Shown here: positions 6,156 to 48,689 of the stretch, in pieces
Layout of the letters: each line of letters begins with the position of its first letter
Position numbering within the stretch: position 1 is the first letter of the stretch
Assembly (NCBI GenBank): GCA_040375445.1
Contig: JBEISK010000004.1
Span: 2,115 to 66,114, forward strand
Direction of reading: 5' to 3'
From: Gammaproteobacteria bacterium
Lineage (GTDB): Bacteria > Cyanobacteriota > Vampirovibrionia > Vampirovibrionales > JAJTHC01
DNA: 64,000 nt
Notes under the pieces: generated by a model
What the model saw: only the letters and a program-made list of their open reading frames with translations
Database searches by the model: none
What the model was told of the DNA's origin: nothing
Position numbers and translations under genes: made by a program

Positions 6156-6161
6156 GGGGGA

Positions 6162-6668
6162 ATGATGAGATTTGATTTTTCTAAGTTTTGGAATAATCCG
6201 AATCTTTGGGTTCATGGGGTTCTATTATTAGTTTTGGGTATTTTTCTTAATTCGCATGTTGAATCTTGCAATGAAAAAGCTAAAGAGGAAATCTCGCCTG
6301 CCACGCTTCAAATCTTGCCCTATTTGCATCAAAAACAAGACTCTACCCTAGCAAAGAATATTTATGACGCATTAACAACAACAGAATTAGAAAAAATACA
6401 TATCGAATGGGAAAACACACCTGTTGTTCATGTATCCCCTCCCGAAATTGATAGTATTTACTGTACTCCTTCTAGTGCCAAACACGTTAGGAGTATTGTT
6501 GAGTTATTGCACAAGAAGAATATTATGAGAGTCGACGCGATTTTTCCTGCCCCAAAGCAACAATCAAGGCTTTTACTTTTTGGTCATAATAAAAATTATT
6601 CTGACAATACAAAAATTACGCCTCAAGAAATAGATAATGCACAAGCCCTTTGCACTAGAAAAAAATAA
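6162..6668 (+). CDS. orphan small membrane/secreted protein (AT-rich cassette ORF)
   Basis: The track ORF starts 6 nt after the R-M stop. N-terminal hydrophobic segment WVHGVLLLVLGIFL. No recognisable motifs. Confidence 0.45.
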   Translation: MMRFDFSKFWNNPNLWVHGVLLLVLGIFLNSHVESCNEKAKEEISPATLQILPYLHQKQDSTLAKNIYDALTTTELEKIHIEWENTPVVHVSPPEIDSIYCTPSSAKHVRSIVELLHKKNIMRVDAIFPAPKQQSRLLLFGHNKNYSDNTKITPQEIDNAQALCTRKK

Positions 6669-6680
6669 TGGCAATGCCCC

Positions 6681-7478
6681 TTGTGTGGCTATCCTGATAC
6701 GTTTGATCTTAAGGCGGAAGCTGGCAAGGTCTTACTTTATTGCCATGCCTGCCAAGCTCCCTTTGAAGCCTTCCTTCAGTATTTTCAATCGCTGGATTTA
6801 GGGCAAGCATCTAAGCCCTATAAAGCCATGCCACAAGCAAGCCTTGCGAAGGTCTCGCACACTAGCAAGCAAGAAACCTTGTCGTATGCCCAAGGCATAT
6901 GGGAGGCATCTAAAGCACTAGAAGGCACGCTTGCCGAACGCTATTTAGTATCAAGAGGCATCACGCTTAAAAACTTGGATGCCTTACGCTTTCATCCGTC
7001 TTTAAAGCATAGCGGAAGCCGTTTGTATCACCCTGCTTTAGTGGCGAAAATCACCACAGAAGACGGCGTGTTGACAGGCATCCACCGCACCTATCTCGCA
7101 TCAAACGGTAAAGGCAAGGCATCGGTTTTAGACCCCAAAATGATGCTAGGCAACACAAGGGGAGCAAACATCCATTTAAGCCCCCTCACAGGCGACACAC
7201 TCGCCGTATGTGAAGGGATTGAAACAGGGTTAAGCATCCTACAAATGACAGGCATCCCGACGTGGGCGTGTCTTTCCATTGCTGGCATGGCAAACCTTGT
7301 GATTCCTAAAAGCATTCGCACCTTGCTAATTTGTGGGGACAATGACCCATCAGGTATAACCGCCTCGCTTGCCTTAAAAGCCCGAGCGATTCAAGAAGGC
7401 TATGCCGTGAAACACATCACCCCCCAAGAAGCAGGCTTTGATTTTAACGATGTTTTACAAAAGGAGGCAACCCAATGA
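6681..7478 (+). CDS. Toprim-domain DNA primase with P4-type zinc ribbon (5' end probably truncated)
   Basis: The C4 ribbon is (C)PLCG...x17...CHAC. The Toprim region is LAVCEGIETGLS...LLICGDNDPSG. The only in-frame start is TTG 6681, which lies after the first Cys codon at 6675. Confidence 0.75.
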   Translation: MCGYPDTFDLKAEAGKVLLYCHACQAPFEAFLQYFQSLDLGQASKPYKAMPQASLAKVSHTSKQETLSYAQGIWEASKALEGTLAERYLVSRGITLKNLDALRFHPSLKHSGSRLYHPALVAKITTEDGVLTGIHRTYLASNGKGKASVLDPKMMLGNTRGANIHLSPLTGDTLAVCEGIETGLSILQMTGIPTWACLSIAGMANLVIPKSIRTLLICGDNDPSGITASLALKARAIQEGYAVKHITPQEAGFDFNDVLQKEATQ

Positions 7479-9031
7479 CCGATATTCAAGCACTGATTAA
7501 CCAGTCCCCACTAGAAACCGCTGAAACGGTTGAAGCATCCAAATGGGGAACACCAAGACCGATTCAAAGCGTTTTGCTCCCCGTGGATGACCTTGATTTA
7601 AGCCTCGTGCCTCATGAGGCACGGGCATGGCTTGAAGATGAAGCCGAACGACTACAAGTCAAACCTGACTTTATAGCGGTGTCCTTAATGGTCGTTTTAA
7701 GTAGCGTTATAGGCAGGCAAGTGGCGATTCGCCCCAAAGCAAAGGACGATTGGATCGTGGTGCCTAACTTATGGGGCATGATTATTGGCAGACCGTCCAG
7801 CTTTAAAAGCCCTAGCGTGGCAGGTGTTTTAAAACCTTTGAATCGCTTACAAGCTTTATCGATTCAAGAAAATGAACACGCTTTAAATGAGTTTCAAGCC
7901 CTTGAAAAACGAAAAGACTTGGAACGAAAAGTGTTGACGGACAAACTAAAACGAACCATGAAGGCAAACCCCGATACGGTGGATATAGAAGCCGAAACCC
8001 TCGTCATTGAAGAAAAATGCAAGCTCCCCCCTAAGCCTGCTTGCAAGCGTTATATCGCCAATGATATTACCGTTCAAAAGCTAGGGGAACTCTTGAGAGA
8101 CAATCCCAATGGCGTGCTGGTGTTTCGAGACGAACTTTCCGCCTTTTTACACAAGCTAGACAAAGAAGGACACGACCAAGACCGTAGCTTCTTCTTAGAA
8201 GCGTGGAACGGCACCAACAGCTATTCAGACGACACCATAAGCCGTGGCACGGTTTATATCGAATCGTGTTGTGTGTCTGTTTTTGGAGGCATACAACCCA
8301 CCGTGCTTGGCAAGTGGCTCGCCGATGCCATTCACCACACAGGCAAAGATGACGGCTTTATGCAACGCTTTCAGCTCATGGTCTACCCCGACCCCTTGCG
8401 AGAGATTCAAGGCGTGGATCGTTACCCGAATAAGCAAGCCCAAAAGACTTACTTTGAATTGGTGAAGCGTTTAAGCACGCTTTCCCCTGAACTTATTGGT
8501 TGCATTCAAGAAGAAGAGGAATTGCCTTATTTGAGATTCGCCCCTGAAGCCCAAGTGATTTTCGATGATTGGTATTTAGACTTAAGGCAAAGGCTTTCAA
8601 GCCCTGAAGGTGACAGCACCTTAGAAGCTCATTTTATGAAGTATTCGTCTTTAGTGCCGTCTTTGGCGTTGATTTGTCATTTGGCGAATGGACATCAAGG
8701 ACAGGTGTCGAAAGAAGCCTTGTTACAAGCCCTTGCATGGAGTGAATACCTTGCAAGCCATGCCAAGCGGATTTATGCACTAGGGCAGAATCATCATTTG
8801 ACGGTGGCTCATGCTTTGTTGAAACGTCTTAAGGCAAAAGAACTTCTGAATCCTTTTACCTTGCGAGAAATTAAGCGTAAGCACTGGCAAGGCATGAGCG
8901 AACCCAAAACGCTTGAAGAGGCGTTGGACACCTTAGAAGAGCATGGCTACTTGCGAAAAGAAGAGAATCGCCCTTTAATAGGTCGTCCGAGTGTTCAGTA
9001 TTACATCAATCCTATAGTGTTCGATAGATGA
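7475..9031 (+). CDS. DUF3987-type primase-associated helicase-like protein
   Basis: ATGA overlap with the primase gene. It is roughly 70 percent identical by eye to the C-terminal two thirds of 43849..46125, for example PRPIQSVLLPVDD, VVPNLWGM and CHLANG. Confidence 0.75.
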   Translation: MTDIQALINQSPLETAETVEASKWGTPRPIQSVLLPVDDLDLSLVPHEARAWLEDEAERLQVKPDFIAVSLMVVLSSVIGRQVAIRPKAKDDWIVVPNLWGMIIGRPSSFKSPSVAGVLKPLNRLQALSIQENEHALNEFQALEKRKDLERKVLTDKLKRTMKANPDTVDIEAETLVIEEKCKLPPKPACKRYIANDITVQKLGELLRDNPNGVLVFRDELSAFLHKLDKEGHDQDRSFFLEAWNGTNSYSDDTISRGTVYIESCCVSVFGGIQPTVLGKWLADAIHHTGKDDGFMQRFQLMVYPDPLREIQGVDRYPNKQAQKTYFELVKRLSTLSPELIGCIQEEEELPYLRFAPEAQVIFDDWYLDLRQRLSSPEGDSTLEAHFMKYSSLVPSLALICHLANGHQGQVSKEALLQALAWSEYLASHAKRIYALGQNHHLTVAHALLKRLKAKELLNPFTLREIKRKHWQGMSEPKTLEEALDTLEEHGYLRKEENRPLIGRPSVQYYINPIVFDR

Positions 9032-9185
9032 AACAGGCTATGAGGCTATTCTAGGAGCCTAGATTTTTTTGTGCGGGCGTGTAGTTGAGACCTACATAAC
9101 CAAACAAAAAAATCGTAGCGACAACGAAGAGACCATAGACGGTTTTATATAGCGGATACTATTAGTTTGTTGGGGGAAGAAGATC

Positions 9186-9593
9186 ATGGGTAAGTGGTTG
9201 CAAGCCTTGAAAGAAGAGCGTGCCAATTCGTATGTTTTAGAGGTGGAAACAAACGAAAAAAATAAAAACACACCCATGCACCCAGTGCCAAAAGTGTCAA
9301 AACCCCCTTTTGGCACTTTTGACACTTCCCCCCATAGTCCTTTTGAAAAAAATACACCTATTTCACCAACGGATGTTCACACGTTGATCCGCTATTTGAA
9401 GCCTAAAGGGTTTGTGTCCATGTACACGGTGGCGATAGGCTTAAACTGGCAGGTGGCTCGTGTGCAAGCGGTGGCTTTGCACCTGAAGCACCAGCTATGG
9501 CTCTTAGACGACAAGTCCTCCATTGCCCTCACTAGCTTGGCACGGCGTGATTGGGTGAAATCGAGATCTAAACTTTCGCAGGTTTCGCCATAG
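9186..9593 (+). CDS. conserved island protein, possible wHTH DNA-binding protein
   Basis: The residues from HPVPKV to TSLARR are nearly identical to 43503..43847. The C-terminal tail runs into the iteron-like repeat and may be spurious. Confidence 0.6.
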   Translation: MGKWLQALKEERANSYVLEVETNEKNKNTPMHPVPKVSKPPFGTFDTSPHSPFEKNTPISPTDVHTLIRYLKPKGFVSMYTVAIGLNWQVARVQAVALHLKHQLWLLDDKSSIALTSLARRDWVKSRSKLSQVSP

Positions 9594-9695
9594 GGGGGGG
9601 AGGGGCGAGGTAAAAACAATTTGAAAATATAGTGAAAACCGTATGTTGGGAACATTCACGCATCCGTGCTTGGGAAGTTTTGGGTAAAACCTAAT
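9570..9695. repeat. conserved noncoding module (iteron-like GCGAAACCTGCGAAAGT + G-rich/AT-rich block), copy in island 1
   Basis: The reverse complement of 9570-9590 matches the GCGAAACCTGCGAAAGTT repeats of island 2. Positions 9593-9690 align to the reverse complement of about 41480-41585. Confidence 0.7.
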
Positions 9696-9705
9696 TACTG
9701 CAAAA

Positions 9706-9790
9706 GTCAACCTATAAGTTGACAAAGTATTGTATTTTGTCAACTTATAGGTTACTATTAAATGATAAAAAAGAAACTTAAAGGTTGACA
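9706..9790 (+). promoter_or_regulatory. palindromic operator-like sites upstream of the HTH gene
   Basis: GTCAAC-CTATAA-GTTGAC at 9706-9723, GTCAAC-TTATAG-GTTAC at 9739-9755, a GGTTGAC half site at 9783-9789, and TTGACAAA...TTTGTCAA at 9719-9743. Confidence 0.5.
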
Positions 9791-9792
9791 AA

Positions 9793-10260
9793 ATGAAGTC
9801 TCGTTCCATTGAAGCCTGTCGACAACTCGACAAACGCTTCCAATCCATTAACGCAAGCACCCTATTTGAACGCCCTGTAAAGGGCTGGATTAAAGCCATT
9901 CGTGAAGCCTTAGGCATGACGCTCGAACAGCTTGGCAATCGCATGAAGGTGTCAAGGCAACAAGTCGGCTACTTAGAGCAAGACGAACTCAAAGGCAGTG
10001 TCACCCTTGCCACCATGGAACGCATCGCTAATGCCTTGGGGTGTCGATTCGTTTATGCGTTGATTCCTGAAACCAGCTTGCAAGACAAAGTCCATGCACA
10101 AGCACGACAAAAATCCCTTGCTTTGCTTGCACAAACCAGTCATAGCATGAATCTTGAAGCACAAGGCGTATTGCCTGAAGAACAAGAAGAACAGCTTCAA
10201 AGCCTGATCGATGACTTCCTAACAGGCAAGCCCTCTCGCTTGTGGGAGGATACAGAATGA
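9793..10260 (+). CDS. mobile mystery protein A (XRE-type HTH)
   Basis: HTH segment IREALGMTLEQLGNRMKVSRQQVGYLE. ATGA-coupled to a Fic gene, which is the arrangement of the TIGR02612/TIGR02613 pair. Confidence 0.75.
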   Translation: MKSRSIEACRQLDKRFQSINASTLFERPVKGWIKAIREALGMTLEQLGNRMKVSRQQVGYLEQDELKGSVTLATMERIANALGCRFVYALIPETSLQDKVHAQARQKSLALLAQTSHSMNLEAQGVLPEEQEEQLQSLIDDFLTGKPSRLWEDTE

Positions 10261-10844
10261 GCGATTTATTCCAAACCGATGATGCATCCACCCCTCTCAC
10301 TGAAGAAGAAAAAAGCGATTTAATTCCTTCTTACATCACGTTTAGAGATGAACTCAACGCCGTTGAGCAAAGCAACATTCTTGAAGCTGAACGTGCTTAT
10401 TTCATTCGCAAGCCTAAAACGATTTTAGAGATACACTTTCTTAAAAAGCTTCATAAACAGATGTTTGGTAACGTGTGGAAGTGGGCAGGCAATTTTCGTA
10501 AAACCGCTCGTAATATCGGGGTGGAAGCGTTTCGTATTCAAACGGAGCTAAAAAAGCTCGTGGATGATGTTCATTTTTGGATCGAGCAAGGCACTTACCC
10601 CCCTGATGAAATAGCGACTCGTTTTCATCATCGTTTGGTGTGGGTTCATCCGTTTCCTAATGGCAATGGTCGTCATGCTCGCTTGGCAACCGATTTGTTA
10701 TTGCGTCAACTCGGGCAGGCAAGATTCACGTGGGGAAGTGTCACCTTAACGTCTATGAATGACACTCGCACGACTTATGTACAAGCCCTTCAAAAGGCTG
10801 ACAAGGGAGATATTTCCGCCTTACTTGCTTTTGTGCGTTCTTAA
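10257..10844 (+). CDS. mobile mystery protein B (Fic-domain protein)
   Basis: Fic motif HPFPNGNGRHARL. The ATG at 10257 overlaps the TGA of the upstream gene. The track ORF begins 15 nt earlier. Confidence 0.8.
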   Translation: MSDLFQTDDASTPLTEEEKSDLIPSYITFRDELNAVEQSNILEAERAYFIRKPKTILEIHFLKKLHKQMFGNVWKWAGNFRKTARNIGVEAFRIQTELKKLVDDVHFWIEQGTYPPDEIATRFHHRLVWVHPFPNGNGRHARLATDLLLRQLGQARFTWGSVTLTSMNDTRTTYVQALQKADKGDISALLAFVRS

Positions 10845-11119
10845 GACCGTGAATCGTGGATGCCTTGCATCAAGAGCGTGGCTCGCAGGCGTTCTATTTG
10901 AGCTTCAATCGAATAGTAGCCATGCGTTAAATTGCCTTGCCTTTGGGCTTGCTTGCCTTCCACCGTTTTCGCCCCTGTGGATTTACCCCCGTGAAAACGA
11001 CACCGACCGTTCTTCATCGCAGGTTGAACACAAGGCAAACCGCTTCTTTTACTGGTGGCTCCGCATTGCTTAAAGGAGTGAAGTGTTTGGACAAGGGGTA
11101 GATCCTCATGTTTTCGCAT
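10841..11119 (-). CDS. HGGxSTG-motif protein
   Basis: CGATSKRSGLPCVQPAMKNGRCRFHGGKSTGAKT. Paralog of 41682..41963. The start was chosen at the Met that aligns with the paralog. Confidence 0.7.
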   Translation of the reverse strand: MRKHEDLPLVQTLHSFKQCGATSKRSGLPCVQPAMKNGRCRFHGGKSTGAKTVEGKQAQRQGNLTHGYYSIEAQIERLRATLLMQGIHDSRS

Positions 11120-11696
11120 GGACTCCCCCTCCCCCGATGTTGCCAATCATCGCTTGCCCGTGATTTTCAACGTTGAAATGTTGAACTTGAATCACTTGCT
11201 TGCCGTGGTTACGATACTTCACCAAGCTTTCGTTTAAGGTGGTAAAGGTCTTCAATAGCTTGGTGCTACGGTTGATTAAGGATTCCACATGACCAGCAGG
11301 TAATTGATCATTCAGACTACGACGCATCATCACCAAAGCAAGATGATTCACACTCACCATTTGAGAAGCCAACATCGTTTCGGTACTGTCATTGGCGGCA
11401 ATACCTCTCAATAGGGCAAGCCCTGCATTCATGTTATCTTCCCCCATAATCGCCACCAGTTGAGTAAGCACATAGTGATGCACATCATCATCCGCCACGC
11501 CAATGGTTTCAAGTAGTTGGGTGTAATGATCCACAATGTTGGCTTTTGGATTCTTCAGCTCGATCCCTCCTCCTTCCCCGACCTTTAGCTTGACGGGTTC
11601 CAAGTGGTTTCGTTCGAGGCGTTTAAACTTGGCTTTCCCTGCTTCGTCAAGAGAAGCGAGATCGGCTTTAGCTTTTTCAAGGGCATCTTTTTGCAT
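11106..11696 (-). CDS. conserved island protein, partner of the HGGxSTG protein
   Basis: Lies upstream of and overlaps the HGGxSTG gene. The C-terminal ...VQHFNVENHGQAMIGN resembles ...QQVNVNDGGQAVVTQ of 41967..42443. Confidence 0.6.
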   Translation of the reverse strand: MQKDALEKAKADLASLDEAGKAKFKRLERNHLEPVKLKVGEGGGIELKNPKANIVDHYTQLLETIGVADDDVHHYVLTQLVAIMGEDNMNAGLALLRGIAANDSTETMLASQMVSVNHLALVMMRRSLNDQLPAGHVESLINRSTKLLKTFTTLNESLVKYRNHGKQVIQVQHFNVENHGQAMIGNIGGGGVHAKT

Positions 11697-11738
11697 GGTA
11701 AGGACTCCTGTTTCTTTAGGCGACTTGCTTTAAAAGGA

Positions 11739-11768
11739 TTGACAACCACTCGCCGTTTTCTCTACAAT
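11739..11768 (+). promoter_or_regulatory. near-consensus sigma70 promoter reading out of island 1 into ORF X2
   Basis: TTGACA at 11739-11744, an 18-nt spacer, then TACAAT at 11763-11768. Confidence 0.55.
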
Positions 11769-11792
11769 ATGTTCGGAACTTGTCTACAATGT

Positions 11793-11840
11793 CCCATTTT
11801 TAGACCCACTCACCATTTTTTAGAACCTTGGGGATCTTAC
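11793..11840 (+). repeat. direct repeat DR-A copy 2
   Basis: CCCATTTTTAGACCCAC...TTTTTAGAACC...TTACA, matching 243-290. Confidence 0.8.
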
Positions 11841-11841
11841 A

Positions 11842-12489
11842 ATGCATGAGTCTGGTTACTATAAGATAAAATTAGATTCTTTAGCAAAAGAAATACTTGA
11901 AAAATCCACCCAACCACAACATAATTATGAGTCTTCTTATCTTGACTTGGAGTTTGATGTTTTTCTTGTCGCACATATCATAAATAAACTTTTAAATTGG
12001 GAAACAAAGCTTTCGGATGAGTTTGAAAAAGAACAATTTTCCTTAGAAAAGTTACCTCGTAAATCCTTAGAAGAATCAGGCAAGATAGATATTATGAATA
12101 ATAATCGATGGGATGAGTTTTACAATGCAGACAAAACACATAAAGAACAACGAAAGGCTTCTTTTATTTGTGACCAGTTAAGACATTCATTCATTTTTTA
12201 TATAACCTCAGAGCCAGTTATGACGGATAATCCTCTTAGTGAAAGCCATGTCTTTAAAGGTTTTGGGTTTAATTCAGACAAAACAAAAAACGAAGGTTTG
12301 TTTTACATCGAAATGAACGAATTTTTGAAAATGATAAATCTCGCTGTTTCTGATGCTATAATAAGTTCGGAATACCGTAGGAATCCTGAAACAGGTACAA
12401 TGCAGATTAAACAGACTCGTTTAAGTTTAAATCCTCGTGAAGTTGAAGAATGGATTAGAACAGGCGAAGAAAGGTTCTATGGACCATAA
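11842..12489 (+). CDS. orphan soluble protein (cassette ORF X2)
   Basis: ATG immediately after DR-A copy 2, with a GGGGA SD-like element inside the repeat. Visibly AT-rich. No recognisable motif. Confidence 0.55.
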   Translation: MHESGYYKIKLDSLAKEILEKSTQPQHNYESSYLDLEFDVFLVAHIINKLLNWETKLSDEFEKEQFSLEKLPRKSLEESGKIDIMNNNRWDEFYNADKTHKEQRKASFICDQLRHSFIFYITSEPVMTDNPLSESHVFKGFGFNSDKTKNEGLFYIEMNEFLKMINLAVSDAIISSEYRRNPETGTMQIKQTRLSLNPREVEEWIRTGEERFYGP

Positions 12490-30562: not shown

Positions 30563-31027
30563 AGCTGGTGCTGTCAGAGACCTTTGGACGCACAAAGGTT
30601 CTCCGACACCTCTAAATGCGTTTAAGGAGGGGGGAAGAGAAGGAAGTTGTTGCGGCTCTCCTTCTCTTCCCCCCTCCTTAAAAATCCACCCCCCATCTCA
30701 TCCTCTTCGCTTGCATAACTTTCTACTCGTGGGACGTCCGCAAAATCGCTCGGGGATTCGCAGTACGCTCACCCGCTCGGATTTAGTGCTTGGACGTCGG
30801 CTCGTGCAACGAGTCAAAAATCAACACGCAATGACGGACAAAAGGCTTGCCGACAACGCACTAAATGCGAGGCTTCCGAGACATTTTGCGGACGGCAGGA
30901 ACGGAGGGAAAGCGAGAGGGGTGGGATTCTTAAGGGAGGGGGGCGACCAAGACCCTCCCTCCCTTAAGCCGCCTTTAGAGGTGTTGGAGACCTTTGGCGG
31001 AGCAAAGGTCTCTGACAACGACCAGCT
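30563..31027. repeat. about 465-bp nested giant palindrome (two inverted copies of an about 230-bp repeat unit)
   Basis: The left end AGCTGGTGCTGTCAGAGACCTTTGG...ACACCTCTAAATGCG is the inverted complement of the right end ...CCTTTAGAGGTGT...CAAAGGTCTCTGACAACGACCAGCT. Internal arm pairs are also inverted (GGACGTCCGCAAAAT/ATTTTGCGGACGGC and CGGATTTAGTGC/GCACTAAATGCG), with the centre near 30800. Confidence 0.75.
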
Positions 31028-38806: not shown

Positions 38807-39622
38807 TTATCTCTCTCCTGCAAGATCTGCAATACTTGCATTTAAAACAGCCATGGCTATTTTACAAGTATGCTCATCAGGATTAAAGGATGCTGCTATT
38901 TGAGCACGAGGATGCACATAGTTTCTAAAGTCTCGAAGATGCTCACTAAATTTATGAATATCAGCTTTAAGGCTTCCTACTTCTACTGCGGTCTGTATCA
39001 AGTTATTTAGAGTCCAAAAAGCAATACGAAGTGGCTTATCATCTTTGTCTTTTGGAGAAGCCTTTGTTTGATTGTAGATTGTGAAGTTTTTGGAAGCCGT
39101 TTCGAGAAGAAGTGCTTCAAGTATACTGCCACACAAAATCATTGCCGATAAGTAACACTCTGAATTCATGCAACGTTCAAATTCCATAATTCTATCGATT
39201 AGGAGTCTTTGGTAATCAAGAGACAAATCAATTTTTTGTAAATGCTCTAAACTAAACGTTGAAAATTTATCTGTAAGTGTTTCTGTTGAATCTATTGGTT
39301 TTTTAGATGAGTTAGCATTTAACTCACTCAAAACATCTTTTGCTTTTACTATTTTGTTTTGAGGAAATTTTAAATCTTCAGAAATTCTAATTAGTTCTTT
39401 TAAGACCTTAATAATCAACAAACGGTCTTCTTTTTCCAAAAAAATTCTTAATCTTTTTGCTTTACCCTTACCGTTAGTTTTATACTTAGGGTCATCAATA
39501 TTTATACCAAAATCTCGGAAAAATTCAGTAAAGGTTCTATCCGAAAAATTAAGAACATAGCCATCAGACATTTCAAATAAATCTTCAAAAACTACTTTCT
39601 GATGATAACTCAAAACATGCAT
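38807..39622 (-). CDS. AbiJ-like abortive-infection protein candidate (N-terminal AbiJ_NTD-like domain + C-terminal HEPN-like domain)
   Basis: The start is ATG 39622 with GGGAGG 7 nt upstream. The N-terminus is GYVLNFSDRTFTEFFRDFGINIDDPKY...KAKRLRIF. The C-terminus LRDFRNYVHP fits an Rx4-6H HEPN motif. Visibly AT-rich. Confidence 0.55.
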   Translation of the reverse strand: MHVLSYHQKVVFEDLFEMSDGYVLNFSDRTFTEFFRDFGINIDDPKYKTNGKGKAKRLRIFLEKEDRLLIIKVLKELIRISEDLKFPQNKIVKAKDVLSELNANSSKKPIDSTETLTDKFSTFSLEHLQKIDLSLDYQRLLIDRIMEFERCMNSECYLSAMILCGSILEALLLETASKNFTIYNQTKASPKDKDDKPLRIAFWTLNNLIQTAVEVGSLKADIHKFSEHLRDFRNYVHPRAQIAASFNPDEHTCKIAMAVLNASIADLAGER

Positions 39623-39638
39623 ACATAAGCCTCCCAAT

Positions 39639-39670
39639 AACAAAGAAAAATACTCCCAAGGGGATTCGAA
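39639..39670. repeat. 32-bp direct repeat containing a partial tRNA-Glu 3' end (distal att site)
   Basis: AACAAAGAAAAATACTCCCAAGGGGATTCGAA is identical to 48495-48526. The last 20 nt correspond to the 3' end of the tRNA-Glu at 48507-48579. Confidence 0.85.
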
Positions 39671-39797
39671 TGGTGGCATCTAGTGTTTGCAACAATTCTA
39701 TATTCTTTGATATAAATTATTTTTATTCTATTACACTACATTTTACAGCGAAAATAGATTGATGCAATTCTCTTGAAATTGATGGTTTTTGACGAAA

Positions 39798-39830: not shown

Positions 39831-39959
39831 GTCAAAATCCCTTTTGACGTTGCCTCTTTTTTTCGGGCTTGGCTGGTTGTCATGTAAAGTAAATCCTGAT
39901 TTTTTTACATGATGTGCATTATGTGTAAAAGAAAAGGCGTTTCGTTTACACCTATTTTT

Positions 39960-40005
39960 AAAATCGTCCCCATTGCGATTGCGAAACCTGCGAAAGTTGC
40001 GAAAG
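39960..40005 (+). promoter_or_regulatory. GCGA-type iteron-like repeat, copy 1 of island 2
   Basis: AAAATCGTCCCCATTGCGATTGCGAAACCTGCGAAAGTTGCGAAAGC. Confidence 0.5.
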
Positions 40006-40172
40006 CTCTTGCCTATACCTTGCGGAGATTAACCCTTGTTTACTCCGCAAAAAATGCGGAGATTTATCCGTAAGACGATTATATTCTTGTTATCCTGTCA
40101 TATTGACGCTTTAAACCTATCACGTATGAGAGGATAATCTAATAAAAATGATAGGATAAAATAGCAAGATCT

Positions 40173-40220
40173 AAAATCGCCCCCATTGCGATTGCGGATT
40201 TGCGAAACCTGCGAAAGTGG
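40173..40220 (+). promoter_or_regulatory. GCGA-type iteron-like repeat, copy 2 of island 2
   Basis: AAAATCGCCCCCATTGCGATTGCGGATTTGCGAAACCTGCGAAAGTGG. Confidence 0.5.
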
Positions 40221-40309: not shown

Positions 40310-41476
40310 ATGCCCCCTTCAAATCCTTCACAATATGGCACATACATTCAAAGCACCGCTTCAGGAGAACTCGTCAATGCCTTCATGCCTGCGGACTTGC
40401 CCTTAAACCCTCCCCTCGATCTAAGTTCGCTGGAACCACTGCTTGAAAAAGCCTCCCGCAAGCTTGGAGAGCTGAACGGCATGGCATCCCTATTGCCGAA
40501 TGTGAACCTGTTTTTGTACCATTACATAAGGCAAGAAGCCTTGTTGTCGTCTCAAATTGAGGGAACGCAATCGTCTTACCACGACCTCATGCTCCACGAA
40601 GCTCTAGAAGCCCCGAGCGTGCCACTCGAAGACATCGAAGAGGTGTCGACCTATATCAACGCCATTCATCATGGCATCGCACGCCTGCAAAAAGACGACT
40701 TCCCGCTTTCCCTAAGATTGATCCGTGAAGTGCATGAAAAACTTCTCCACAACACCCGAGGCATGCACAAGCAAGCAGGTCACTTTCGCCAATCTCAAAA
40801 CTGGATAGGCGGTAGTCGCCCGAGTAACGCCCTTTTCGTCCCGCCCCCTCCTGAAAAGCTGGCGGATTTATTGAAAAACCTCGAAGCCTTCATCCATGAA
40901 GAGCAAAGTAACTTGCCCCACTTGGTAAAAGTCGCCATGCTACACTTGCAATTTGAAACCATTCACCCCTTTTTAGATGGCAACGGTCGGGCAGGACGTT
41001 TACTCATCACGCTTTATTTAATTGATAAAGGCATGTTAGATGCCCCTATTTTGTATTTAAGCCTTTACCTTAAAACGCATCGACACACCTATTACCGCTT
41101 GCTTCAAGACGTTCGTCTTGCGGATGGCTGGCTTGAATGGATACGCTTTTTTCTGCAAGGTGTCATAGACACTTGCGATTCGGCTATGGCTCAAACCAAA
41201 GCCCTAAATACCTTAATTGGTACAGATGAAGCAAAGCTTGCCAGTCAAGGCAGACAAAAAGAAACCTTGTTGAGCGTGTTCCAATTTCTCTTGAATAAGC
41301 CTGTCTTGTCGATTCCTTATGCGTCGGAACAACTTGGGCTTTCACAACCGACGGTAACGAAAGCATTTCAAACCCTTGAAGCGTTAGGCATTGTGCAAGA
41401 AGAAAGTGGTAAACAACGAGGCAAGCTTTATGCGTATTCGGCTTATCTTGACGTGTTGAGTAAGCATCAAATCTAA
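40310..41476 (+). CDS. Fic-family protein, class II (N-terminal inhibitory helix, C-terminal wHTH-like domain)
   Basis: Fic motif HPFLDGNGRAGRLL and inhibitory-type motif SSQIEG ([S/T]xxxE[G/N]). AAAGGA SD 6 nt upstream. Confidence 0.8.
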   Translation: MPPSNPSQYGTYIQSTASGELVNAFMPADLPLNPPLDLSSLEPLLEKASRKLGELNGMASLLPNVNLFLYHYIRQEALLSSQIEGTQSSYHDLMLHEALEAPSVPLEDIEEVSTYINAIHHGIARLQKDDFPLSLRLIREVHEKLLHNTRGMHKQAGHFRQSQNWIGGSRPSNALFVPPPPEKLADLLKNLEAFIHEEQSNLPHLVKVAMLHLQFETIHPFLDGNGRAGRLLITLYLIDKGMLDAPILYLSLYLKTHRHTYYRLLQDVRLADGWLEWIRFFLQGVIDTCDSAMAQTKALNTLIGTDEAKLASQGRQKETLLSVFQFLLNKPVLSIPYASEQLGLSQPTVTKAFQTLEALGIVQEESGKQRGKLYAYSAYLDVLSKHQI

Positions 41477-41682
41477 AACGTTTCAGTTTTACCCAAAACT
41501 TCCCAAACACACATGCGTGCGTGTTGCCAACATGCGGTTTTCAATATATTTTCAAATACTTTTTACCCCGCCCCTCCCCCCTTTGCCGAAAATAAGAAAA
41601 GGGGATAGGTGCGACTATTAACTAAACGGTTTTTCAATTCGCCCCGCCTGCGATTGCGAAACCAGCGAAAGTTGCGAAAGTT
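41475..41682. repeat. conserved noncoding module, island 2 copy (inverted relative to 9570-9695)
   Basis: The reverse complement of about 41480-41585 aligns with 9593-9690. A GCGATTGCGAAACCAGCGAAAGTTGCGAAAGT repeat lies at 41650-41682. Confidence 0.7.
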
Positions 41683-43502: not shown

Positions 43503-43847
43503 CTAATAGTCCTTAAATAAACGCCTTGCCAAGCTGGTGAGGGCAATGGAGGACTTGTCGTCTAAAAGCCATAGCTGGTGCTTCAGGTGCAACGCCACCG
43601 CTTCCACACGAGCCACCTGCCAGTTTAAGCCTATCGCCACCGTGTACATCGACACAAAGCCCTTTGGCATCAAATAGCGGATCAACGTGTGAACATCTGC
43701 TGGTGAAACTGGTGCATTTTTTTCAAAAGGGCTATGGGGGGAAGTGTCAAAAGTGCCAAAAGGGGGTTTTGTCACTTTTGGCACTGGGTGTATGGTCTGT
43801 TTTTCATTTTTCAATTCCGCTTTCAATACTGCCAGCCAAGTACCCAT
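43503..43847 (-). CDS. conserved island protein, possible wHTH DNA-binding protein
   Basis: Near-identical to 9186..9593 from HPVPKV to TSLARR. Confidence 0.65.
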   Translation of the reverse strand: MGTWLAVLKAELKNEKQTIHPVPKVTKPPFGTFDTSPHSPFEKNAPVSPADVHTLIRYLMPKGFVSMYTVAIGLNWQVARVEAVALHLKHQLWLLDDKSSIALTSLARRLFKDY

Positions 43848-43848
43848 G

Positions 43849-46125
43849 TTATGCTTCCCCCTGCCATAAAGGGTTCATGTGATAGTGAACGGTGGGTCTG
43901 CCTTCTGTGCGTCGTTCTTCTCGTAGGATGTAACCGTGTTCTTCTAAGGTATCCAAGGCTTCTTCTATCACTTTTGGGGTATCAAAGCCATGCCAATGCT
44001 TACGTTTTAATTCACGCAAGGTAAAAGGGTTATTTAACTTTTCGGCTTTCAGCTTTTTCAATAGTACATGAGCCAACGTTAAATGATGACTACCCCCCAT
44101 GGCGTAAATTCGGTGTGCATGGCTAGCTAAGTAATCGCTCCACGCTAGGGCTTGAATTAACGCTCGTTTACTTACGTTTCCCGTATCGCCATTGGCAAGA
44201 TGACAAATTAACGCTAAAGAAGGCACTAAAGACGCATACTTAGTAAAATGAGCTTCTAAGGTCGGGTTTTCATTGCCGTTTAGGTGGGCTTTTCGCCATG
44301 ATAAATGCCAATCATCAAATAAGGGTTGAGCCTCTTCGGTAAAGCGTAAAAATGGGATGCTATCACCTGCCACGGTATAACACCCAAGACTTTGTGGGAT
44401 TATAATGGCTAGTTCCTGAATTAGAGAGTAATAATTCTGTTTAGCGACTAGGTTGGGGGGTGTGTCTACATGTATAATGGCTTGTAAAGTATCAGGATAC
44501 ACCATTAACTGAAAACGTTGAATTAAACCGTCATCTTTCCCCGTTTGAGTTAAGGCATCTGACAACCATTTGCTAATGACGCTTGGCTGAATCCCTCCAA
44601 ACACGGAAAGGCAATGCCCTTCGATGTAGACAGTCCCTCGTGTGATGCGGTCAAAGGTATAACTGCCTGTACCATTCCAACTTTCAAGATAAAAAGCTCT
44701 ATCGCTTTCGTAACCTTCTTTGTCTAGCTTTTTTAAGAACCCTGCCAACTCATCTCTAAATAAGAGTAGCCCATTAGAGTTTTGTGAAAGCAATTCACCA
44801 ACTTTTTCAACCGTTGGGTCATTACTCATATAGCGTTTGCAAACGGGTGGAGGGGGTAGTGTGGTTTCTTCTTCCCATTCTTTGGCTTGTTGTTCTATAT
44901 TGATTACCTTATTCTTAACTGTGAAGCTTTTTTTTAATGTTTGCTCTAAGGCTTTTTGCTTAATTTCCATCACCCTTTTTAGGTTTTCATACTCTTTCAT
45001 TACATGGGTATGTTTACTAAAGGCGTCTTGTTCCAATTGTGTAACCGCTTTTAAAACACTTTGGATGCTAGGCGTTTTCATTGTGGAAGGCTTGCCAATA
45101 ACCATTCCCCATAAATTAGGAACAACAAGCCAATTATCTTGGGCTTTAGGACGAATACCCACTTGCCGACCTATTAAACTACCTAATGTTACCATTAACG
45201 TAACCGCCATAAAATCAATACTAACTTGCATGCGGTTTGATTCATCTATTAGCCATGCCTTCGCTCGTAATGGTAATAAATCGGTATCAAAGTCATCCAC
45301 GGGGAGTAAAACGCTTTGAATCGGTCTTGGCTTATCCCATTGACAGACTTGAACCGTTTCATCTTTTCCGTGAAGAAAAGGTGTTGCTTGGCTTTGAAAC
45401 GACCTTAAGCCTTGTTCTTGAAATGAGGACTCACCTCCTCGATACCCTCCACTAAAAGACGCCAATACGTTGGAGATTGTTCGGTCTCGATAGTCTTTTC
45501 GTTCTTGCCATTTCGGACGTTGCCCCAATGCGGATTGATTGAACAAGTTTTCCATTTGAGAGGCATTGCCATTCGTCCACCATGACAAATGGCTTAATAA
45601 CGCCATATCGGCTCGGCTGTCATCGTTTCCATATTTTGCGGTGTTGCCATGCCACAAGGCTTGAATCTCTGAACCGTTTTCGCTATTGAACATCTTTTCT
45701 AGTAAGCTGTCATTACGAAGCCCCATGAAGCAAGGTTCTTTTTCTTGTGTGTCAAATAAAGTAGGATTTTTTACTGATGATTTTGGTAAAAAATCACGAT
45801 ACAAACATTCTAATGCCTCTTCCCCATCGGCTAAAATAAGCGGGGATGCTTCGTAACGATTGGCGGTGAAGGCAATAAAGCGATCGGTTTCATAGATTTC
45901 AATATGATGCCCTGAAGGCAAGTTCCAGCGGTTTCTTCTTTCGCCAATAGATGCCTTTAAAAACAAGTGTAAGCCCTTTCCTGATTGACTCACTTCTATA
46001 AAGGTTTGAGGCATGATTTCTAAAATAGGCATAACCCATTCTAGTGGTTTTTGATTTTCATCAAGTGCATTGTCTAAATCAATGACCACAATGCCTGCCT
46101 TTAAACTAAAGCCCAAGCCATGCAA
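43849..46125 (-). CDS. Prim-Pol primase / PriCT-like / DUF3987 helicase-like fusion protein (5' end probably truncated)
   Basis: The N-terminus GIVVIDLDNA...SGKGLHLFL is a Prim-Pol catalytic core. The middle ALWHGN...DDSRADMALLSHLSWWTNG is PriCT-like. The C-terminal 500 aa are paralogous to 7475..9031. The frame stays open upstream of the ATG with plausible extra homology. Confidence 0.75.
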   Translation of the reverse strand: MHGLGFSLKAGIVVIDLDNALDENQKPLEWVMPILEIMPQTFIEVSQSGKGLHLFLKASIGERRNRWNLPSGHHIEIYETDRFIAFTANRYEASPLILADGEEALECLYRDFLPKSSVKNPTLFDTQEKEPCFMGLRNDSLLEKMFNSENGSEIQALWHGNTAKYGNDDSRADMALLSHLSWWTNGNASQMENLFNQSALGQRPKWQERKDYRDRTISNVLASFSGGYRGGESSFQEQGLRSFQSQATPFLHGKDETVQVCQWDKPRPIQSVLLPVDDFDTDLLPLRAKAWLIDESNRMQVSIDFMAVTLMVTLGSLIGRQVGIRPKAQDNWLVVPNLWGMVIGKPSTMKTPSIQSVLKAVTQLEQDAFSKHTHVMKEYENLKRVMEIKQKALEQTLKKSFTVKNKVINIEQQAKEWEEETTLPPPPVCKRYMSNDPTVEKVGELLSQNSNGLLLFRDELAGFLKKLDKEGYESDRAFYLESWNGTGSYTFDRITRGTVYIEGHCLSVFGGIQPSVISKWLSDALTQTGKDDGLIQRFQLMVYPDTLQAIIHVDTPPNLVAKQNYYSLIQELAIIIPQSLGCYTVAGDSIPFLRFTEEAQPLFDDWHLSWRKAHLNGNENPTLEAHFTKYASLVPSLALICHLANGDTGNVSKRALIQALAWSDYLASHAHRIYAMGGSHHLTLAHVLLKKLKAEKLNNPFTLRELKRKHWHGFDTPKVIEEALDTLEEHGYILREERRTEGRPTVHYHMNPLWQGEA

Positions 46126-46214
46126 GTTTTGTGAATAAGGGTAATCTTGAGTTACTTGTTAGGGCTTTCATTTTGTGTTATTTTAATTGAAAATAAAAGG
46201 AGTTTCCCAAGCCA

Positions 46215-47018
46215 ATGAGTCAAGATAATTTTGAGATATTAGCCAACCTTCGACAAACAAACAATTCCCCTGAAGAAGTGGGAACACATAAAAAATGCCC
46301 TTTTTGTTTTGAAGAAATTTTAGCAGATGCCATTAAATGCAAACATTGCGGTGAATTTTTAGACACCACCTTCAAAAGAGAACTCAAAAACAAAAAGACT
46401 CAATACTCAAGAGTCTTTCCCCTTTGGAAGTTTTTCTTATTTGAGTTGATTACTTTGGGCTGGTTTAAGATTTATTGGTCTTACATTCAGTGGACTAACT
46501 TTAAGAAGCTTATCGATGCCGAAAAGAAAACGGAAGGACACACGGAAGAGTTTCAATCTGAAAAATATGAAATCAAACCGTTACTCGAAACATTTTTAAT
46601 GTCTGTTCCCATTGTTTATTGGTGGAAAGTGGTTAAGCTTTATGATATTTTTAAGTTGTTTTCTAAACTTTATAACGTTCCGATGGTAAAAAATACAGGA
46701 TTTAAGCTTTTTCTTCTTTTGTCTTTGGAGGGGCTGGGATCAACTCTTTCATGGCAGAGTTGGAGAAATGAAAACCATATACTAAACCAACTTTTTACAG
46801 AGGTGCATAAAGCACAATTACTTGAGATCTTGTGGATTCTATTAATCTTTACTCTGTTCCCTATTCAAAAAAGCCTTAACACCCTTTGGCAGAAAGTGGA
46901 TAGCGATTTACCTGTACGTAACACACTTTCTGTCAAAGAGATTATTTTTGTGAGTATTTTTGGATTGTTCTATCTTGTTGAACTTATATATACGTTTTAT
47001 CCAAATGTAAATAATTGA
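46215..47018 (+). CDS. zinc-ribbon plus multi-TM membrane protein (DUF4234-like), orphan cassette gene
   Basis: The N-terminus is CPFCFEEILADAIKCKHCGEF. It is followed by hydrophobic/aromatic TM-like segments such as LWKFFLFELITLGWFKIYW. AAAGGAG SD upstream. AT-rich. Confidence 0.55.
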   Translation: MSQDNFEILANLRQTNNSPEEVGTHKKCPFCFEEILADAIKCKHCGEFLDTTFKRELKNKKTQYSRVFPLWKFFLFELITLGWFKIYWSYIQWTNFKKLIDAEKKTEGHTEEFQSEKYEIKPLLETFLMSVPIVYWWKVVKLYDIFKLFSKLYNVPMVKNTGFKLFLLLSLEGLGSTLSWQSWRNENHILNQLFTEVHKAQLLEILWILLIFTLFPIQKSLNTLWQKVDSDLPVRNTLSVKEIIFVSIFGLFYLVELIYTFYPNVNN

Positions 47019-47056
47019 AAACTTATATGCCCCTAAAAACAAAGGAAACAGTAGAT

Positions 47057-47485
47057 ATGAATATTTGGATCAAGCTTATGGTATTTGCTTGTATTCTTTT
47101 TGGGGTGGCTTTCTTAGGTATTTGCATTTCTATTCTTCAATCAGGAAGCTCACCTACCGTTTTATGGGGAGATGTTCCTAGTTGGTTAGGCTTTATTGCA
47201 ACAGCTTTTACGGCTTATATAGGAAATAAAATTCGTGAAGAATTCAAATTCCAAGAGAAAACAAAAATATTTTACCAAAGAGCAGATAAATTCTATGATA
47301 CTTGGGTAAATCTTATAACAGATTATAGAATACAGAGAAGAGGGTTGATAGCATTAAATGATTGGATTTACGATTTAAAAGAAAAATCGAATCCAGAAAT
47401 TATATCAATGATTAAGAGAAACGAGTGTCATTGTAATTGTCTTGAATCCAAAGAATCCAGAAAGCGTTTAGATGAATACTTATAA
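47057..47485 (+). CDS. two-TM membrane protein, orphan cassette gene
   Basis: MNIWIKLMVFACILFGVAFLGICISIL...WLGFIATAFTAYIG. The track ORF starts at TTG 47015, overlapping the previous gene. ATG 47057 has AGGAA upstream. Confidence 0.5.
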   Translation: MNIWIKLMVFACILFGVAFLGICISILQSGSSPTVLWGDVPSWLGFIATAFTAYIGNKIREEFKFQEKTKIFYQRADKFYDTWVNLITDYRIQRRGLIALNDWIYDLKEKSNPEIISMIKRNECHCNCLESKESRKRLDEYL

Positions 47486-47656
47486 AAACCTGAGTCAGAA
47501 ACACTCTCAGCTTTATATTTAGACCAGTTTTTAGATGAACTCCTAACTAACGAAGTAACAAAACCGCTCTTTCGACTAACTGTTGCCGTTTGGAGAGATT
47601 TCAATGATACACTAGAAAGAGAGCCTTTATTTTCTCAAAATCAGCAATTAAAAAGT

Positions 47657-47860
47657 ATGACAAAAAATCTAGAATATTTAACATTGATTCATAAACTAAA
47701 ACATGTTTCTTGGAAAGACAAGAGTAAAGCAATAAAGCGTCTACAGGAGTCGGAGGAGGAAATAAACCAAGCTATTAGTTCTTTACTAAAAGATGCTTTT
47801 CGAATCTTATTTGAAGAAGCAGATCAAAAAGTTCACAAAATGAGAACGAATTCTAAATGA
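47657..47860 (+). CDS. small helical protein, or the C-terminal part of the preceding gene
   Basis: Same frame as 47015..47485. The frame is open all the way from the TAA at 47483-47485 to 47860. Confidence 0.35.
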   Translation: MTKNLEYLTLIHKLKHVSWKDKSKAIKRLQESEEEINQAISSLLKDAFRILFEEADQKVHKMRTNSK

Positions 47861-47861
47861 T

Positions 47862-48506
47862 AGTTCTGTTATGCTGTCGCCTTTTGCGGGACTCATTAAA
47901 TGCGGACATTGCGGAGGATCTGTCACAGGAGACATCAAGAAAAAGAAGTATGTGTACTATCGATGCGGGCATCACAAGCAAAAATGCCCTGACAAGTACA
48001 TCCGTGAAGAAGCCCTTGCCGAACAATTTGAACGCCATGTGGCATGCCTTCGCATGACCCCTGAACAAAGTGCATGGATCCGCCAAGCTTTGAAGGAAGT
48101 CAATCAAACCAAAGAGATTGAAATAAACGAACGCCGTCATACCATTCAACGTGAGTTAAAACGCTTAGAACACAAGCTCAATCAAGCCTATGAAGACAAG
48201 TTAGATGGTGTAATTACCGATGCTTTTTACTTAATGAAGTCGACGCAATACAATGCCGAAATAGCAGAGCTGAACGGCACATGGGAAAAACTTTCCCTCG
48301 TGAATGAAGATCAGATTCGTTTGGGGTTGATGATTGTGGATTTTGCGTCGAACACGGTACACGCCTTTAAACACATGACAATGTTCGAAAAGGCTGATTT
48401 ACTGCGGATACTCGTTTCGAACTTTTCCTTAGAGGGCGGAGAAGTGCAAGTTCACTGGAAAAAACCCTTCGATGTATTGGCTCAAAAAGACAAAAACAAA
48501 GAAAAA
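47862..48506 (+). pseudogene. large serine recombinase, C-terminal fragment (zinc ribbon + coiled coil)
   Basis: FAGLIKCGHCGGSVTGD...YVYYRCGHHKQKCPDKYIREE is the zinc-beta-ribbon domain of large serine recombinases. The catalytic and recombinase domains are absent. The track ORF (47871..48560) reads on into the tRNA. Confidence 0.75.
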
Positions 48507-48526
48507 TACTCCCAAGGGGATTCGAA
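48495..48526. repeat. 32-bp direct repeat (tRNA-proximal att site)
   Basis: Identical to 39639-39670. Confidence 0.85.
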
Positions 48527-48579
48527 CCCCTGCCGCATCCGTGAAAGGGATGTGTCCTAGGCCTCTAGACGATGGGAGC
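48507..48579 (-). tRNA. tRNA-Glu (anticodon UUC)
   Basis: The reverse complement is GCTCCCATCGTCTAGAGGCCTAGGACACATCCCTTTCACGGATGCGGCAGGGGTTCGAATCCCCTTGGGAGTA. It closely resembles bacterial tRNA-Glu. The anticodon loop is CTTTCAC. Positions 1:72 form a G-U pair. Confidence 0.9.
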
Positions 48580-48689
48580 ATTTGTTGTCTTTCGTCAAAG
48601 CTCAATCGAACTTCAACCTGTTCATCATCATATAAACAAAACATGCCGTCAACCCCCTTTTTTGACCCCTTCACGCACAAAAAAATCGT

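Follow-up and report, generated by a model that had tools for sequence, protein, structure and literature searches.

An uncharacterized gene pair in an exchangeable slot of a degraded genomic island in Vampirovibrionales

In phage satellites, variable cassettes located between conserved genes are reservoirs of anti-phage systems, some of which have transmembrane (TM) effectors (PMC9122126). At the P4-like psu-int locus and the P2 hotspots, such a variable segment is flanked by the backbone genes of a small element with an integrase and a primase (Rousset et al. 2022, PMC9122126). Here we describe a comparable cassette in a Vampirovibrionales genome (GCA_040375445.1), within a 64,000-nt stretch of contig JBEISK010000004.1 (positions 2,115–66,114 of the forward strand), hereafter the window, in whose coordinates positions are given unless another contig is named. 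The cassette spans 46179–47876 (1.7 kb) of an island next to a tRNA-Glu gene and carries two genes, gene 1 and gene 2. The anatomy and history of the locus are well supported: an uncharacterized gene pair lies in an exchangeable slot of a degraded, non-autonomous island. As in the satellite and prophage hotspots, a defense reverse transcriptase is found among the alleles of the slot, and AT-rich cargo has apparently been exchanged by flanking homology; by analogy, the slot appears to follow the same pattern as these hotspots (PMC9122126). Unlike them, the host is a member of the Vampirovibrionales, the element uses a large serine recombinase together with an archaeo-eukaryotic primase (AEP)/DUF3987 helicase, and the backbone has been partly deleted (regulator, catalytic half of the integrase, and 5′ end of the primase gene).

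Membrane effectors of abortive infection are known from lambda Rex (RexAB) and, as TM effectors, from CBASS, Pycsar and retrons. The pair resembles RexAB-type systems in concept only, as a multi-pass membrane protein and a protein of ~280 aa with a cytoplasmic domain carried as mobile-element cargo, and differs from them in that neither sequence nor fold is similar (PADLOC and PDB gave no match), a nucleotide-signaling or enzymatic partner is missing, and both proteins have a membrane anchor. Superinfection-exclusion membrane proteins of temperate phages, e.g., Sie2009, P22 SieA and T4 Imm, have their genes close to that of the integrase or the repressor. They are likewise small membrane proteins of no conserved family beside an integration module, whereas both soluble domains of the pair are predicted to be cytoplasmic and no homology connects the two. 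The AbiA/DRT-type reverse transcriptase is found in exactly the same slot of two sister islands and shares the AT-rich composition of the pair, but it is unrelated in sequence, is encoded on the opposite strand, and is a single cytoplasmic enzyme of 645–654 aa.

A variable slot between primase and recombinase

The cassette has a GC content of 32.7%, as compared with 44.2% for the window and 42–44% for the island backbone (primase gene, 41.6%; recombinase fragment, 43.6%). Its genes run divergently from the primase gene (Table 1). An earlier note on this DNA had described an AT-rich cassette divergent from a truncated primase gene, and both points hold: the primase lacks ~65–80 N-terminal residues relative to its intact relatives (808–827 aa) and to the PHROG primase profiles, which are matched only from position ~66. 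Three open reading frames (ORFs) are found on the plus strand, i.e., the 267-aa ORF of gene 1, a second at 47015–47485, and a third at 47657–47860. The second may start at TTG 47015, ATG 47027 or ATG 47057, the last of which is preceded by AAGGAAAC, and depending on the start it overlaps gene 1 by 4 nt or follows it after a gap of 8 nt. A GGAG lies 13 nt ahead of the gene 1 ATG. The region upstream of gene 1 (46126–46214) has a single difference from the corresponding region of L002, a 95.5%-identical contig from another sample, and is ~93% identical to that of L003, a Vampirovibrionales metagenome-assembled genome (MAG).

What the cassette replaced can be read from two intact relatives, L103 (also located at tRNA-Glu) and L105. 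In both, the primase gene (827 or 808 aa) is followed, in divergent orientation, by an HTH_3 regulator, an ORF of 163 or 220 aa, and a large serine recombinase with Resolvase, Recombinase and Zn_ribbon_recom domains (519 aa in L105). Compared with L103, ~2.6 kb of backbone has been exchanged for the 1.7-kb cassette, and the loss extends from the 5′ end of the primase gene, through the helix-turn-helix (HTH) regulator and one ORF, to recombinase residue ~272, so that the catalytic half of the recombinase (residues 1–~272) is missing. The cassette is foreign AT-rich cargo in the former place of the recombinase N-terminal half. The earlier statement that it replaced the 5′ half of the recombinase gene was right but incomplete, as the primase 5′ end, the regulator and the ORF were lost as well.

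The same backbone is found in two sister islands, L010 and L088, in which the recombinase fragment is 91–96% and the 5′ part of the primase gene 89–96% identical to the window. Between the common primase and recombinase fragment, at 46143/46179–47876/47892 of the window, which is equivalent to 12609–14561 of L010 and to the slot of L088, these islands carry on the opposite strand an AbiA-like reverse transcriptase of 645–654 aa (PADLOC AbiA, 6e-32 and 7e-32; Pfam RVT_1), in a cassette of ~34% GC. The junctions of the slot are nested. On the right, the window and L002 retain more of the backbone (“FAGLIK” of the recombinase); on the left, 46143–46178 is present in L088 and not in L010. Because of this nesting, the sequences weakly suggest that AbiA replaced a gene-1/2-type state and not the reverse.

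Other related islands carry defense genes beside the primase: a type IIG restriction-modification (R-M) enzyme, adjoining the 5′ end of the primase gene, in L086, a type I R-M system and Shedu SduA (5e-135) in L091, and an NsnA-like protein with a Fic protein in L090. These data support the view that the slot acts as a defense hotspot. The tRNA-Glu site, in turn, holds different DNA in each of the sister genomes (L007, L008, L009 and L016), and its occupants include Gabija (GajA 6e-119, GajB 8e-28), a type II R-M system (restriction endonuclease, 1e-133, with two C5-methyltransferases), and an integrase/TOPRIM/DUF3987 element that includes a CapP-like gene. This tRNA-Glu is a hotspot of defense islands.

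Part of the cassette has also moved recently between lineages. Gene 1 is identical to that of L002 over all 804 nt, and the ~1.2 kb at ~46100–47290, which include gene 1 together with the DNA ahead of it and the TM part of gene 2, differ from L002 by seven mismatches, while the flanks are 5–14% diverged. A near-identical tract inside such diverged flanks argues for a very recent recombinational exchange.

The two cassette genes and the recombinase fragment

The earlier note had read gene 1 as a zinc ribbon fused to DUF4234-like membrane segments, and this reading is borne out. The ribbon (CPFC...CKHCG, residues 28–45) keeps all of C28, C31, C42 and C45, at columns that are 95–97% conserved among 81 homologs, and gives weak matches to Pfam DZR and Zn_ribbon_3. 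The match to Pfam DUF4234 lies under the gathering score (17.7 bits, E 0.004, vs. 25.3) and is backed by full-length homology to DUF4234 proteins. A whole-protein search with gene 1 gave, beyond the ribbon, only three matches: the protein itself, the chimeric P0002 of L003 described below, and P0003, an end-to-end homolog of ~30% identity (E 9e-21, 89% coverage). A profile of the membrane domain only retrieved 112 proteins of ~200–240 aa from many bacterial and archaeal phyla, and among 82 aligned members DUF4234 is found in 63 (E ≤ 1e-3), DUF4328 in 32 and Zn_ribbon_3 in 32. Gene 1 aligns end to end with this Zn-ribbon/DUF4234 (PF14018)/DUF4328 family and shares with its members the N-terminal ribbon, a YWxYxxW hairpin motif and a C-terminal QxxLNxxW helix; judging from its sequence, it belongs to a widespread and uncharacterized family of Zn-ribbon/DUF4234 membrane proteins. 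Unlike typical members, however, it is carried by a mobile island instead of sitting among chromosomal housekeeping genes, and it scores below the Pfam gathering threshold. It is also the most divergent of the 82 aligned sequences, keeping 33 of the 62 columns that are at least 80% conserved (53%), against a median of 92% for the others.

The AlphaFold2 (AF2) model of gene 1, built with the family alignment, comprises the ribbon and five to six helices (predicted local distance difference test, pLDDT, 84.7; predicted template modeling score, pTM, 0.71), and residues 200–218 and 243–261 form strongly hydrophobic segments. No structural relative of the model was found in PDB or BFVD at E ≤ 1e-3. 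At the composition of the cassette, an ORF of 267 codons would be open by chance with P ~1e-9. With this probability, the full-length homologs and the confident AF2 model, gene 1 is a real gene. Scans of metagenome and viral contigs gave no further copies of it, and nothing functional was found in the literature on DUF4234, DUF4328 or Vampirovibrio defense.

A chimeric derivative of gene 1 was observed at an unrelated chromosomal site, positions 7299–8300 of L003 (JBILSS010000024.1). It keeps the upstream region and zinc ribbon of gene 1 (93% nucleotide identity) and its last ~130 nt, whereas the middle has been exchanged for a different multi-TM domain within an intact ORF of 237 aa; at the old 3′ end a deletion of 4 nt disrupts the original frame, and there is no gene 2. 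This swapped middle shows that the zinc-ribbon module recombines with alternative membrane domains, in agreement with the many architectures seen among ribbon-only matches to gene 1. A separate observation concerns two contigs of 3439 and 1769 bp (IMG 3300059473 / GCA_041445565.1) that carry intact gene 2. On the contig of 3439 bp, gene 2 (281 aa) is preceded, where gene 1 would be expected, by a gene of 268 aa. This upstream gene is not among the gene 1 homologs from a search of 5.8 billion proteins and may be another alternative membrane module.

Gene 2 is interrupted in the window. When 47015–47870 is translated in one frame, a single stop is found, TAA 47483–47485, which separates “gene 2” from “gene 3” of the earlier note. 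The contig L002 has CAA (Gln) at this codon and a single gene of 277 aa, gene 2 is also uninterrupted in P0072 (281 aa) and P0185 (277 aa), and the TAA recurs in L001, a separately made assembly of this strain with one mismatch in 4785 nt. Gene 2 is thus nonsense-truncated here at codon 153 of 277. With only one in-frame stop here and uninterrupted relatives, the cassette is a gene pair rather than the trio of the earlier note, whose ORFs are all present and whose placing of “gene 3” in the frame of gene 2 was correct; the third ORF is the 3′ part of gene 2. As an independent gene, “gene 3” was rejected on the same grounds and because P0071 does not share its internal Met; a weak match of this part to Bac_RepA_C scores 22.8 bits against a cut-off of 25 and is probably spurious. 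Downstream of the stop, gene 2 has diverged from P0072 no more than upstream of it, so the nonsense mutation is recent.

The hydrophobicity profile of gene 2, which the earlier note had described as a two-TM protein, has one strong and one weaker segment, with positive charges after the second. The C-terminal ~200 residues are all-helical and predicted to be cytoplasmic. When 1.84 billion representative proteins were searched with a profile, gene 2 itself was the sole match, and no homology was detected by word-indexed search, by exhaustive HMMER profile search, in Pfam, PHROGs, NCBIfam or PADLOC, by tblastn against phages and plasmids, or in scans of genome, metagenome and viral contigs. By these searches, gene 2 is a strict ORFan. 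Derivation of its C-terminal domain from the 163- or 220-aa ORF of the intact elements was considered and rejected, as there is no similarity. An AF2 model from two sequences reached a pLDDT of 56, and Foldseek on this model gave only generic helical matches (E > 0.4), which were disregarded.

The two parts of gene 2 evolve at different rates. Compared with L002, omega (the ratio of nonsynonymous to synonymous substitution rates) is 0.05 in the TM part (aa 11–90) and ~0.68 in the helical domain (aa 91–277), with 45 nonsynonymous and 16 synonymous differences. The frame is open in three other copies at 84% identity (16% amino-acid divergence). The rate in the helical domain could result from relaxed constraint or from diversifying selection that acts on a specificity domain.

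Downstream of gene 2 lies the C-terminal fragment of the large serine recombinase, which matches Pfam Zn_ribbon_recom (4e-14) and positions 371–581 of the 651 of phrog_95 integrase; no N-terminal resolvase catalytic domain or recombinase domain was found in it by Pfam or PHROG. Its ATG (47871) follows the gene 2 stop by 10 nt, not by the 1 nt previously given for the end of the operon, and it is possibly the last gene of the cassette transcription unit. In L010 and L088, there is no canonical start ahead of the conserved CGHCGG region. Among the four 5′-truncated copies (the window, L002, L010 and L088), omega is 0.066–0.094 in all six pairs (binomial p < 1e-8 vs. neutrality), whereas out-of-frame controls give omega ≥ 1. 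The pair L010/L088 shares the AbiA junction and yet differs at a synonymous divergence (dS) of 0.41 with omega 0.078, which indicates that the constraint postdates the truncation. From these rates the fragment looks like a retained gene and not a pseudogene; that it blocks related integrases is speculation.

Candidate functions of the pair

We tentatively read the cassette as a module that excludes phages or mobile elements at the inner membrane, with somewhat less than even confidence. The function itself is proposed solely because of the slot position, and the context supports, by analogy, a role in defense or exclusion. AbiA fills the same slot of L010 and L088, and both alternative cassettes are AT-rich (~33–34% GC). 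A SoFic gene lies on the same island, R-M, Shedu and NsnA-like genes adjoin the primase in related islands, and the tRNA-Glu site is a hotspot. The reading is further consistent with the backbone genes that the cassette replaced, the reality of gene 1, the contrast in gene 2 between a low omega in the TM part and a high one in the cytoplasmic domain, its three open copies, the recent exchange, and the precedent of satellite cassettes. In such a module, the cytoplasmic membrane would hold together gene 1, with its Zn ribbon and a helical bundle of the DUF4234 type, and gene 2, with its conserved TM anchor, and the soluble domains of both would face the cytoplasm. Specificity would come from the fast-evolving helical domain of gene 2, which would recognize a component of the invader; the membrane part would then stop DNA entry or replication or collapse membrane integrity, and the outcome would be a Rex-like abortive infection or a Sie-like block. 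The sequences show the structure of the genes, the nonsense mutation, the loss of backbone genes to the cassette, its allelism with AbiA, its foreign composition and the evolutionary rates; the physical interaction of the two proteins, the trigger and the anti-phage effect are what we infer. In the window, the module is probably inactive, or only gene 1 is left, since gene 2 is cut at codon 153. More doubtful is a stronger proposal, in which the intact cassette would be an undescribed, purely membrane-based anti-phage or anti-element system composed of a Zn-ribbon/DUF4234-type protein and an anchored ORFan with a diversifying cytoplasmic domain, maybe acting with the recombinase fragment, which could, e.g., have a dominant-negative effect on incoming elements that share its integrase and att site.

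Several results weigh against an exclusion module. The earlier note had taken a zinc-ribbon sensor plus a membrane effector to be a defense architecture, and this does not hold for the gene 1 family as a whole: its clusters number more than 110 and come from both bacteria and archaea; of six members sampled on long contigs, five lie among ordinary genes (an LPS-core operon, a Trp operon, ribosomal protein genes and others) and one near AbiEii and a transposase; and a gene-2-like neighbor is absent from all six. Checking co-occurrence of the genes, as that note had advised, gave no more encouragement. Gene 2 has been found in only about four copies of the island, all near-identical, the L003 derivative of gene 1 has no gene 2, and co-occurrence is therefore uninformative. 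What the note had named as counterevidence was found in part: the genes are not co-conserved past near-identical copies, and the broad family of gene 1 has a housekeeping-like distribution; on the other side, the family is uncharacterized and the slot context strongly defense-like. In PADLOC-DB v2, no family was matched at E ≤ 0.1 by gene 1, gene 2 or “gene 3”; neither protein matches NCBIfam or any PHROG of known function; and phage and plasmid collections hold no relatives beyond the Zn ribbon. Gene 1 has lost the family-conserved polar residues R91, N92, W124, R125, Q142 and Q229, which fits decay as well as neofunctionalization, and the omega of 0.68 in gene 2 can equally be explained by relaxed constraint. 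Finally, the window copy of gene 2 carries the nonsense mutation, no consensus sigma-70 site was found in 46126–46214, and no promoter or terminator signal is conspicuous.

The wide occurrence of the gene 1 family, mostly among housekeeping genes, could mean that the pair is accessory cargo outside defense, in which gene 1 performs the general membrane function of the Zn-ribbon/DUF4234 family, gene 2 is a lineage-specific accessory subunit, and both hitch-hiked into a recombination-prone slot. Such an origin would agree with the lack of a matching defense model and with the fact that not all hotspot genes are defense genes. It is nevertheless somewhat unlikely: gene 1 is an extreme outlier of its family with conserved polar residues lost, the composition of the cassette is foreign, and all other characterized occupants of the slot or the primase-adjacent position are defense systems. 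Inert, decaying DNA, a remnant of older cargo under loss whose genes are non-functional in this lineage, is an explanation to which we give a little less weight still. The nonsense mutation shared by the window and L001 points that way, as do the rearranged, frame-broken gene 1 copy without gene 2 in L003, the junctions that suggest a takeover by AbiA in other lineages, and the high omega of the gene 2 cytoplasmic domain. But an intact gene 1 that is nucleotide-identical in two lineages with 5–14% diverged flanks speaks of recent spread and not of neglect, gene 2 is intact in three other copies with its TM part under strong constraint (omega 0.05), and the nonsense mutation is recent, as post-stop divergence from P0072 does not exceed pre-stop divergence.

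Least probable, and in our view quite improbable, is a module for the maintenance or life cycle of the element itself rather than host defense proper, i.e., an addiction pair of the membrane toxin/antitoxin type, a lysis function like that of holins, or a means of interfering with a helper phage. Small, tightly linked membrane-protein genes (4-nt overlap or 8-nt gap) on a satellite-like element, directly upstream of a recombinase fragment under purifying selection, would suit such a role. The genes are dispensable for the element, however, because L103 and L105 do without them and the sister islands have AbiA instead; a 277-aa gene 2 product with a large cytoplasmic domain is unlike holins; and no toxin/antitoxin or lysis family was matched in Pfam or PHROGs. 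The exclusion module thus remains our tentative choice.

Setting of the island and significance of the pair

The TyrRS that adjoins the locus is 93–95% identical to that of Vampirovibrionales MAGs. The island of ~8.8 kb is delimited by two 36-nt repeats, 35 of whose 36 positions are identical, and synteny with sister genomes picks up again at ~38761. It holds the SoFic gene, several small ORFs, a DUF4116 protein, the primase/helicase gene, the cassette and the recombinase fragment (Table 1).

Table 1 Features of the tRNA-Glu island in window coordinates
Feature	Position	Strand	Remarks
attL-like direct repeat (tRNA-Glu 3′ end + 15 nt)	39635–39670	+	Partner 48491–48526
SoFic-type Fic protein, recognized single-gene defense system	40310–41476	+	PADLOC SoFic 3.8e-115; Pfam Fic_N and Fic
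AEP primase/DUF3987 helicase gene, 5′-truncated; left border of the cargo slot	43849–46125	-	Pfam DUF3987 4e-81, NrS1-1 HBD
Gene 1 upstream/promoter region	46126–46214	+	46143–46178, backbone remnant of the primase 5′ region
Gene 1, predicted inner-membrane protein (267 aa) with N-terminal cytoplasmic Zn ribbon and DUF4234/DUF4328-type domain of 4–5 helices	46215–47018	+	
Gene 2, 5′ part: TM anchor and first ~80 residues of the cytoplasmic helical domain	47057–47485	+	Ends at premature TAA 47483–47485
Gene 2, 3′ part, including the former “gene 3” (47657–47860): rest of the helical cytoplasmic domain	47486–47860	+	Cut off by the nonsense codon
Large serine recombinase, C-terminal fragment (Zn-ribbon domain, coiled coil, tail)	47871–48505	+	Backbone, not cassette
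tRNA-Glu(UUC), island integration target	48506–48580	-	

Both sides of the SoFic gene carry members of a ~51-nt direct repeat family (…TGCGATTGCGAAACCTGCGAAAGTTGCGAAAG), at 39955–40005, 40168–40218 and 41630–41680, which could be iterons or could delimit another cargo slot. A 290-aa ORF of 33% GC (38807–39679, minus strand) is located between the attL-like repeat and the chromosomal flank, with its first codons inside the att repeat. It matches DUF4145 only weakly (E 0.004), has no match in PADLOC, and may be left over from an older insertion at the same tRNA. A 21-nt match connects 39352–39372 and 46302–46322, and the sole long ORF at 39352–39372 runs on the opposite strand.

A second island with related gene content is located at ~1188–12489 of the window, beside tRNA-Ile (173–246). 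It carries a type IIG R-M-like gene of 1655 aa, a TOPRIM-like gene of 265 aa, an HTH and Fic/Doc pair (9793–10844), a DUF3987 helicase with 58% identity to the C-terminal portion of the tRNA-Glu island primase, and homologs of the 114-aa and 93-aa island ORFs. A 93% match on opposite strands between 43742–43811 (~70 nt, the 5′ end of the 114-aa ORF) and 9258–9327 is explained by the paralogy of the two islands. Elsewhere, the intergenic sequence at ~30.5–31.0 kb (30563–31026) matches positions 69–273 of L003 and 5781–5991 of L008 in both orientations, at unrelated positions and with 68–98% identity. It is a dispersed repeat or a small element, and has no match in Rfam at the gathering threshold.

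The locus is a clean natural case of cassette exchange in a decayed satellite-like island, in which one deletion scar holds either AbiA or the gene pair, and it also shows a truncated serine integrase kept as a gene. Mobile elements and immunity are almost unexplored in the source phylum, the non-photosynthetic Cyanobacteria (Vampirovibrionia). If inactive, the pair would be merely another hypothetical cargo pair in a defense island. If active, it would provide a first functional handle on the large Zn-ribbon/DUF4234 family and would add a membrane-only module to the defense repertoire.

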